Notes: generated by a model from the sequence alone, not told the origin. Counted from the stretch's first letter, positions 6,976-7,907 are shown. The stretch is DNA of 64,000 nt from Escherichia coli (GCF_011045215.1 NZ_CP049201.1), one strand, 5' to 3'. Numbers and translations: made by a program.

Positions 6976-7907
6976 ATGAAAGGAAAAGAAAGGAAAAATA
7001 TTTTGTTTTTTTGTAATGGTTGTCACGTAATAAATAAAAAGCAATTGATTATATTGCTGTTTTGTGCTGTAAAGAAGTGCTGCGCTCTGTCTGGTACTGA
7101 TTTATTCCGGGGGGAGGGCATGGCAGATGAAGGGATGAACAGGGACTTTTTGTTTAATTCGTTGACAGCAACAGTCATAAGAGAAAGCAACAATTCACAT
7201 ATGGGGCAGTTTATGAAAACTATCTTCATAGCAGAGCCTGTCGTGACGGCAGGTAACAGTAACAGGCTGATTGCGGTGGAGATTCTGAGCCGATTTTATT
7301 CTGTTAACGGAAAACAACTTCCTACCGTGAAAACGCTGAATATGTTTACAGCAGAGATGAAAATTGATTTGCTGGAATTACAGATAAGAAAAATAATAAG
7401 TAAAGCTTCTTTTTTTAGTAAGCATAATATACTGTGTTCCCTTAACGTCGATTATGATACATGTCAGTATATATACAGAAATAAAAATATTCAGGATATA
7501 ATAAAGTCATATGATTTTATTGTTCTTGAAATTTCTGAAACATACCCGGTCATAAAGGCTGATGATGCAATAATTCCTTTTCTCATTAATTTGTCAGAAC
7601 ATATCTGGCTGGATAATTTAGGGAGTGGTAACAGTACCATACATACATTGATAAGAAATAAATACCAGGCAGTGAAACTTGACAAAAGTTTTTTTCAAAA
7701 ACACAGTATGAAACCGCATTTTTCTGCATTAATAGACAATATAAAAGATTTTGCCCTCTGGTTATTGCCGAGGGTGTTGAAAATAAGGATTATCTTCATG
7801 CTGCTTCAGGAACTGGTTTATGGGGTGTTCAGGGATATTATTTTCCATCAGTACAGTTTGAGGATATTCATCAGATAAAGTTGGATTTTTCTGAGAACAT
7901 CAGCTGA
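6976..7907 (+). pseudogene. EAL-domain (c-di-GMP phosphodiesterase-like) gene, apparently frameshifted near 7750; start uncertain (7123/7201 also possible)
   Basis: ORF 6976..7878 carries EAL-like motifs (AVEILSRF, LEISE, DNLGSGNS, KLDKSFF); the expected C-terminal motifs (VIAEGVEN...QGYYF) are in a different frame that ends at 7905-7907. Confidence 0.55.

Follow-up and report, generated by a model that had tools for sequence, protein, structure and literature searches.

A frameshifted gene for a stand-alone EAL-domain protein upstream of a pap-like fimbrial operon in Escherichia coli is very probably a decaying pseudogene

A 64,000-nucleotide stretch of Escherichia coli DNA (GCF_011045215.1, NZ_CP049201.1; referred to here as the window, with positions counted from its first nucleotide) contains, next to a fimbrial locus, an open reading frame (ORF) with the motifs of an EAL domain. 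The question raised by this locus is whether the ORF represents a functional protein of cyclic di-GMP (c-di-GMP) metabolism, a decaying one, or an intact one that was misread during sequencing. The original prediction was that a 1-nt indel at 7745 to 7755 splits the domain, such that the ORF ends in an atypical hydrophobic tail and the canonical C-terminal motifs fall into another frame downstream. Translation agreed with this description. The ORF extends from 6976 to 7878 on the plus strand, and its last 43 residues (DFALWLLPRVLKIRIIFMLLQELVYGVFRDIIFHQYSLRIFIR) are unlike anything in an EAL domain. Only the −1 frame encodes AEGVE and QGYYF, which are located 3' of a run of four A's and out of frame with the remaining domain; from 7746, the −1 frame reads RFCPLVIAEGVENKDYLHAASGTGLWGVQGYYFPSVQFEDIHQIKLDFSENIS and terminates at a stop codon at 7905 to 7907.

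The nature of the lesion was determined by alignment with orthologues. A megablast search against 5,426 complete E. coli genomes located the gene in only three genomes, at four places, and four E. coli orthologues were aligned with the window. The window has four A's (A4) at 7743 to 7746, where the chromosomes of RM8082, C5, and 52F4 have five (A5); the corresponding sequences are AATATAAAAAG in the three chromosomes and AATATAAAAG in the window and in C5 plasmid A. The lesion is thus one missing A, essentially where the indel had been placed. With residues numbered from ATG 7213 (see below), the frameshift falls after K178 and is followed by the 43 junk residues, and the true C terminus (RFCPLVIAEGVE...QGYYF...ENIS) reads in the −1 frame up to 7907. 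With one A added, the protein became continuous, its match to Pfam EAL improved from 43.1 to 70 bits, and coverage of the profile grew from positions 18 to 199 to positions 18 to 233 of 236. Both the frameshifted and the repaired proteins exceed the PF00563 gathering threshold of 31.3 bits.

The portion of the EAL pseudogene that lies 5' of the frameshift (7213 to 7745, plus strand; defined by translation, the Pfam EAL match, and a start assigned by homology), encodes residues 1 to 177, with K178 completed by 7746, and includes E23-x-L25-x-R27, N78, E106/E109, D134, and K155. The A4 homopolymer (7743 to 7746, plus strand) is the site of the 1-nt deletion, as defined by the alignment, a census of the A run at 19 loci, and a haplotype table. 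The translated 3' part (7746 to 7907, plus strand, −1 frame) runs from R179 through AEGVE (E187, E190) and QGYYF (Q207) to ENIS and the stop codon, and it is identical or nearly identical to the C termini of the intact alleles P0031, P0032, P0034, and P0039. Out-of-frame read-through of 7747 to 7878 (plus strand) was translated as the 43 junk residues (DFALWLL...RIFIR) followed by a stop codon. The same tail was found in no homologue other than the frameshifted alleles P0001, P0012, and P0033.

Taking 6976 as the start of the gene proved to be mistaken. As judged by homology, ATG 7213 is the true start: the paralogues described below and the Salmonella protein STM1697 all begin at its equivalent (MKTIFIAEP in the window, MEVIYIAEP... 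or MKIHFVAEP... in paralogues, and MRYFFMAEP... in STM1697), and the protein was therefore numbered from 7213. This start is also supported by the 231-aa RefSeq annotation of the C5 chromosome copy. RefSeq places the start at the equivalent of ATG 7120 in the plasmid and RM8082 copies and at the equivalent of 7213 in the C5 and 52F4 chromosomal copies. The window ORF comprises 252 aa from ATG 7120 and 221 aa from ATG 7213, and the intact gene comprises 231 aa from 7213. The stretch upstream is in frame only because a poly-G tract just upstream of ATG 7120 (7109 to 7114, plus strand) has six G's (G6) in the window, which marks the 6976 start as artefactual; the tract varies between G6, G7, and G8 among near-identical copies and is G7 or G8 in most copies other than the window. 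The spurious 5' extension (6976 to 7212, plus strand), in which copies differ by many indels and for which homologues have no equivalent, is most likely a non-coding leader. The poly-G tract directly adjoins GGAGGGCATG (ATG 7120) on its upstream side, and G6 is also present in the lineage of loci L020 to L023. The variation in its length could be due to slipped-strand variation or to homopolymer sequencing noise.

A missing A in a homopolymer could also be an error of sequencing or assembly, in which case the gene would be intact in the living cell, and the original prediction had offered decay and error as alternatives. The position of the lesion in a homopolymer is in keeping with an error, as is the nearby poly-G tract, whose length differs among near-identical assemblies, possibly in part as technical noise; however, a run of four or five A's is short, and the distribution of A4 argues for inheritance. 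Translation from ATG 7120 gives a product identical to the 252-aa protein P0001, which is encoded on at least 24 contigs (those that were read; the index lists 34 blocks) from independent GenBank (NCBI) assemblies, an ENA metagenome, and a Logan SRA assembly. All 19 frameshifted loci that were extracted have A4, and every copy of the other haplotypes has A5. The 19 copies, which come from independent projects and platforms, share the linked single-nucleotide polymorphisms (SNPs) 7545C, 7638C, 7796T, and 7857T relative to the intact RM8082 allele. Four of the 19 loci (L020 to L023, protein P0033) have the frameshift and still encode DDLGSG; DNLGSG is thus nested within the frameshift lineage, and the D>N change (G>A at 7615) came later than the frameshift, which also speaks against an error. 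Most frameshifted copies have ISEc8 downstream, L014 has an IS21-family element, and L017 and L020 to L023 have no insertion sequence (IS), indicating that the frameshift predates the IS insertions. These results indicate a single ancestral lesion that was followed by further decay. Sequencing error is all but ruled out by the haplotype that independent assemblies share, its probability being very low, and decay is the alternative that was favored.

In RefSeq, the 252-aa ORF, despite its frameshift, is listed not as a pseudogene but as a normal coding sequence (CDS) for an "EAL domain-containing protein" (L001, 8223 to 8981; NZ_CP010123, WP_249530986.1). One 226-aa protein from an ENA metagenome (P0029) is CheW-like (PF01584), and its last ∼50 residues are 96% identical to the EAL C terminus (SPLVIAEGVENKDYLHAASG...); this combination probably stems from chimerism of the metagenome contig or of the gene call.

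The inherited allele might nevertheless yield a full-length enzyme by recoding at A_AAA_G, either through programmed −1 ribosomal frameshifting or through transcriptional slippage. AGA is a rare and slow codon in E. coli, which would favor such recoding, and a −1 slip of tRNA-Lys from AAA (7744 to 7746) to AAA (7743 to 7745), followed by AGA, would recreate exactly the ancestral ...NIKRFCPLVIAEGVE. The site is not part of an X_XXY_YYZ heptamer, however, and efficient transcriptional slippage would need a run longer than four A's. Folding of the RNA downstream is no stronger than that of shuffled sequence (z = −0.64), and the frameshift is the derived state of one haplotype, with all paralogues and the other orthologues encoded in a single frame. 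D135N and the other independent disruptions described below, moreover, fit relaxed constraint. We consider recoding extremely improbable. A match to known programmed −1 frameshift genes was rejected given the lack of a heptamer, the lack of significant downstream structure, and a two-frame arrangement that is not conserved.

The repaired protein comprises 231 aa from ATG 7213, with EAL as the only domain detected, and the paralogues comprise 226 to 234 aa; a single EAL domain of ∼225 to 255 aa with no N-terminal sensor or GGDEF domain is characteristic of the stand-alone subclass. The catalytic motifs upstream of the frameshift, VEILSRF (E23, L25, R27), SLNVD, LEISE, and VKLDK (N78, E106/E109, K155), are present. 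Eight residues (E23, N78, E106, E109, D134, K155, E187, and Q207) are invariant in 27 family members with identities down to 32%, with R27 and D135 reaching at least 90% conservation in this 27-member alignment. Both Asp residues of the DD pair are kept in the intact alleles and in the other 26 members (alignment A3), the window copy being the exception. Its codon 135 (7615 to 7617, plus strand), that of the second Asp in the metal-binding motif DD(F/L)G(T/S)G, is AAT (Asn) instead of GAT (Asp), giving D134-N135 where intact orthologues encode DDLGSG. DNLGSG had been described as a degenerate form of DDFGTG; the D>N change is indeed degeneration, but the L and the S are normal for the family.

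Sequence and structure comparisons gave concordant placements of the repaired protein. STM1697 was the best sequence match among solved structures (E = 1.5e-30), followed by YdiV/CdgR (E = 3e-18), and BLASTP identities were 30% to STM1697, 28.5% to YdiV, 26% to PdeH, and 24% to SfaY. An AlphaFold model of the repaired protein, built with 27 homologues, had a pLDDT of 93.3 and a pTM of 0.90, and its best Foldseek matches were YdiV (TM 0.85) and STM1697 (TM 0.83/0.90), above all multidomain EAL enzymes. By its matches to YdiV and STM1697, the repaired protein belongs to the enterobacterial stand-alone EAL subclass (PdeH/YdiV/STM1697) known from earlier work (PMC10333796). The break falls directly after helix 170 to 178 of the model and ahead of strand 183 to 187; the frameshift removes this strand (with E187), helix 192 to 199, strand 205 to 207 (with Q207), and the C-terminal helices. 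As predicted from the model, the frameshift and D135N together should abolish both folding and catalysis of the window product. The retention of every catalytic residue across the family, a pattern seen in the active enzymes PdeH and SfaY, suggests that the intact relatives most likely act as c-di-GMP phosphodiesterases. Degeneration of the window copy is due to recent lesions alone.

Disruptions are not confined to the A run. A second chromosomal orthologue lineage (P0030, at least 17 contigs) keeps A5 and has a 4-bp TATG duplication after CDS nucleotide 244, which is an independent inactivation of the EAL gene; one copy of this lineage also has an extra G. The remnant of an AraC-type (YdeO/GadX-like) partner gene, divergent from the EAL gene, was detected by tblastn at 6372 to 6905 on the minus strand. 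It has 49 to 50% identity to residues 11 to 159 of the 234- and 240-aa regulators located beside paralogous EAL genes (E = 9e-45), with an in-frame stop near its 5' end and the whole C-terminal helix-turn-helix (HTH) domain missing. The intact AraC-type partners of the paralogues score best against YdeO/GadX/HilD models. ISEc8 (IS66 family, 2442 bp) occupies 8205 to 10646 on the minus strand, between the EAL gene and the papB-like regulatory region; its limits were set with the empty site of RM8082, and an 8-bp target duplication (TGTGGATC) is present at 8197 to 8204 and 10647 to 10654. The site is empty in L017 and L020 to L023 as well as in RM8082, and the identical arrangement is annotated in C5 plasmid A.

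Some further features of these elements were recorded. The ISEc8 copy is complete, with tnpA, tnpB, and tnpC on the minus strand. The AraC remnant is unannotated and has four substitutions within 21 bp (window 6711 to 6731: 6711C, 6720G, 6725G, and 6731C). When the near-identical copies (plasmid type and RM8082) were compared, only the window had 6711C, 6720G, and 6731C; 6711C is also present in the divergent C5 and 52F4 chromosomal copies, and 6725G is common to five other copies.

The course of decay may be reconstructed as follows. The A5 run at 7743 to 7746 would have lost one A in the ancestor of the plasmid lineage, and translation from ATG 7213 would since then yield 178 native and 43 unrelated residues. 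The last quarter of the (β/α) barrel would thereby be lost, namely β7, β8, and their helices, including E187/E190 of AEGVE and Q207 of QGY. Subsequently, G>A at 7615 would have replaced the second metal-binding Asp (D135N), and the resulting product could hardly be expected to fold or to hydrolyze c-di-GMP. Before these lesions, the gene most likely encoded an active c-di-GMP phosphodiesterase of the stand-alone EAL subclass; it was presumably paired originally with the divergent AraC-type regulator and is located here ∼0.95 kb upstream of the pap-like fimbrial operon. The whole module appears to be decaying, with a truncated partner, a frameshift and a point mutation in the EAL gene, and an ISEc8 insertion alongside. 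Taken together, the locus is very probably an ordinary decaying pseudogene of a stand-alone EAL protein that arose through loss of one A in an A5 run. Given its wide spread, the frameshifted allele may be tolerated, or may even confer an advantage, instead of representing plain neutral decay.

Paralogues of the EAL gene (52 to 56% identical) were found at 178 places in complete E. coli genomes, 170 of them on plasmids. Paralogous stand-alone EAL genes with 41 to 56% identity are located at L007 (6001 to 6690), L009 (6002 to 6565), L008 (5875 to 6555), and L024 (5046 to 5726). Their settings include P1-like phage-plasmids, between darB-like and maturation-control genes; an enterotoxigenic E. 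coli (ETEC) O6:H16 plasmid, beside eatA; a site between two AraC genes, adjoining a TibC-like glycosyltransferase and an autotransporter; and an Enterobacter prophage, in which the EAL gene had no visible AraC-type partner. In these contexts the EAL genes are linked to an AraC-type gene and not to fimbriae, suggesting that AraC plus EAL is the ancestral unit and that the fimbrial adjacency is lineage specific. AraC plus EAL appears to be a conserved two-gene module, and nothing specific on such a plasmid module was found in the literature searched.

The first 25 kb of the window is collinear with E. coli C5 plasmid A (99.3% identity), a 214-kb, predicted conjugative plasmid from a cow, and the window most likely belongs to a related large plasmid. 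Also within the window, a gene at 3928 to 6252 (plus strand) encodes a 774-aa protein with an AraC-type HTH_18 domain in its middle (residues 182 to 259) and a C-terminal region of ∼500 aa without a Pfam match, an architecture that is unusual for the AraC family. This gene is divergent from genes for an M20 aminoacylase and a major facilitator superfamily (MFS) transporter.

The adjacent pap-like chaperone-usher operon begins with a PapB-family regulator gene (11292 to 11603, plus strand) and continues with pilins, PapC, PapD, PapJ, and more pilins up to ∼18.4 kb, as identified by Pfam and annotations. The EAL orthologue lies ∼0.95 kb upstream of the PapB-family gene in every context seen, namely, on the plasmid, on the RM8082 chromosome, and on the C5 and 52F4 chromosomes. 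Its description as a fimbrial regulator in the original prediction is a guess made solely from adjacency to the papB-like gene. A terminator-like hairpin followed by a T run at 8171 to 8188 (plus strand), found in a consensus scan only, weakly suggests that the EAL gene is transcribed separately. No papI-like gene was found between the EAL gene and papB, the uninterrupted RM8082 intergenic region having no minus-strand ORF of at least 40 aa. A promoter scan was uninformative (eight promoter-like sites versus 7.1 expected by chance).

Other observations concern the fimbrial operon. Upstream of the papB-like gene, at window positions 11145 to 11250, GATC occurs twice in a pap-like context (AAACGATCTTTTTAT and AAAAGATCGTTTTT); the two sites are exactly 102 bp apart, which is the spacing in the Dam/Lrp phase switch of pap. 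Between them, the repeat GTGTTTTTT is present in two copies in the window and in four copies in RM8082, where the spacing would become ∼120 bp. Three consecutive plus-strand ORFs of 314 to 319 aa (18579 to 19538, 19547 to 20506, and 20539 to 21483) follow the pilin genes; the first has no Pfam match, and the three have no significant mutual similarity (E = 1.3 and 0.023). They may encode alternative or stacked tip adhesins of the pap-like operon.

The value of the locus lies mainly in annotation and in inventories of c-di-GMP genes, since the pseudogene itself is ordinary: the 252-aa ORF should be treated as a pseudogene when phosphodiesterases of large bovine E. coli plasmids are counted. The locus also points to a mobile, uncharacterized EAL-only family. 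Family members lie beside several adhesin loci, including the pap-like operon of the window, eatA on the ETEC plasmid, and the TibC/autotransporter locus. In E. coli isolates from cattle and elsewhere, the module has been hit independently by the A-run deletion, by the TATG duplication, and by the disappearance of the partner gene. A broader proposal, which we offer tentatively and consider rather doubtful as a whole, is that the intact relatives are unrecognized, catalytically competent sisters of STM1697 and YdiV. As a mobile module of EAL and divergent AraC genes, often beside adhesin loci, they could couple c-di-GMP hydrolysis, FlhD binding, or both to adhesin expression, and repeated inactivation might represent selection against the module instead of neutral decay.

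Among known proteins, STM1697, an anti-FlhD4C2 factor of Salmonella Typhimurium (PDB 5HXG), shares with the window protein a stand-alone EAL fold of ∼230 aa without a sensor, and the two are ∼30% identical and collinear from residue 1. Catalytic residues have been replaced in STM1697 (R27 by H, E106 by Q, and both D134 and E187 by G), whereas the intact relatives of the window gene keep all of them. STM1697 neither binds nor cleaves c-di-GMP (PMC5622320). It is chromosomal in Salmonella, whereas the window family is found on plasmids, phage-plasmids, and islands. YdiV/STM1344 (CdgR; PDB 3TLQ and 4ES4) is of the same stand-alone EAL subclass as the window protein, with ∼28% identity, but it is a core E. 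coli gene whose catalytic residues are fully degenerate. STM1697 and YdiV have H27, Q/L106, G134, and G187 at these positions; the degenerate catalytic site of such factors is not shared by the intact orthologues and paralogues, which have the full residue set.

Given these relatives, the truncated protein might keep a non-enzymatic role, such as YdiV/STM1697-like binding of FlhD that represses motility while fimbriae are made, with the frameshift converting an enzyme into a pure regulator. The two anti-FlhD4C2 factors are indeed the nearest relatives of solved structure, and the equivalent of the STM1697 contact region (residues 136 to 180) lies upstream of the break. The FlhD-contact residues of STM1697, F160, K167, and L173 (contacts from PMC5622320), are conserved in the window gene. 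This conservation is suggestive of FlhD binding but is not diagnostic; F160 falls within K-x-D-x-x-F, a motif common to EAL domains in general. N135 mimics the G-N of YdiV, and the frameshifted allele is common. On the other hand, the loss of two barrel strands and the gain of 43 hydrophobic junk residues should destabilize the fold, and a dead partner regulator together with different disruptions elsewhere looks like loss, not neofunctionalization. We therefore regard a retained FlhD-binding role as very unlikely and favor plain decay of the EAL gene.

El Mouali et al. reportedly described, in J Bacteriol in 2017, horizontally transferred EAL-only proteins on E. coli plasmids. According to a review by Romling, E. 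coli plasmids carry EAL-only proteins that belong to the YdiV/STM1697 subclass (PMC10333796). The plasmid copies in that review are described as catalytically inactive (PMC10333796), whereas the window family keeps every catalytic residue. PdeU1 to PdeU3 (Cimdins et al. 2017), of which PdeU3 is without EGVE and QG, were rejected as counterparts; their motifs (EVLIR/EALMR and DDFGTGYAT/DDFGTGYSC) are of the Tn21 tnpM type and do not match.

SfaY/PdeY resembles the window gene as a small EAL-only gene linked to a PapB-regulated chaperone-usher operon of the pap/sfa type, and it has a DDFGSGN-type loop 6 and the full catalytic set. SfaY has been reported as a stand-alone phosphodiesterase whose EAL gene lies beside a chaperone-usher operon (PMC6385356, PMC5635171). 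Orthology with SfaY/PdeY was rejected, given 22 to 24% identity to SfaY of CFT073 (foc cluster) and locations on opposite sides of the respective operons. SfaY occupies the 3' end, next to sfaX, whereas the window gene lies 5' of papB and is ancestrally accompanied by a divergent AraC-type gene; no sfaX-like gene is adjacent to the window EAL gene.

PdeH (YhjH), an active E. coli phosphodiesterase, likewise has a single EAL domain, and its catalytic set is identical to that of the window family apart from R27. Its model, PRK11596, is the best NCBIfam match (86 bits), far below the equivalog cutoff of 190, with ∼26% identity. PdeH is a core gene of the flagellar regulon, unlike the window gene, which belongs to mobile elements. 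Because the intact members combine PdeH-like catalytic residues with nearest solved relatives, STM1697 and YdiV, that are non-enzymatic, they should be convenient for studying how an EAL enzyme becomes a protein-binding regulator.
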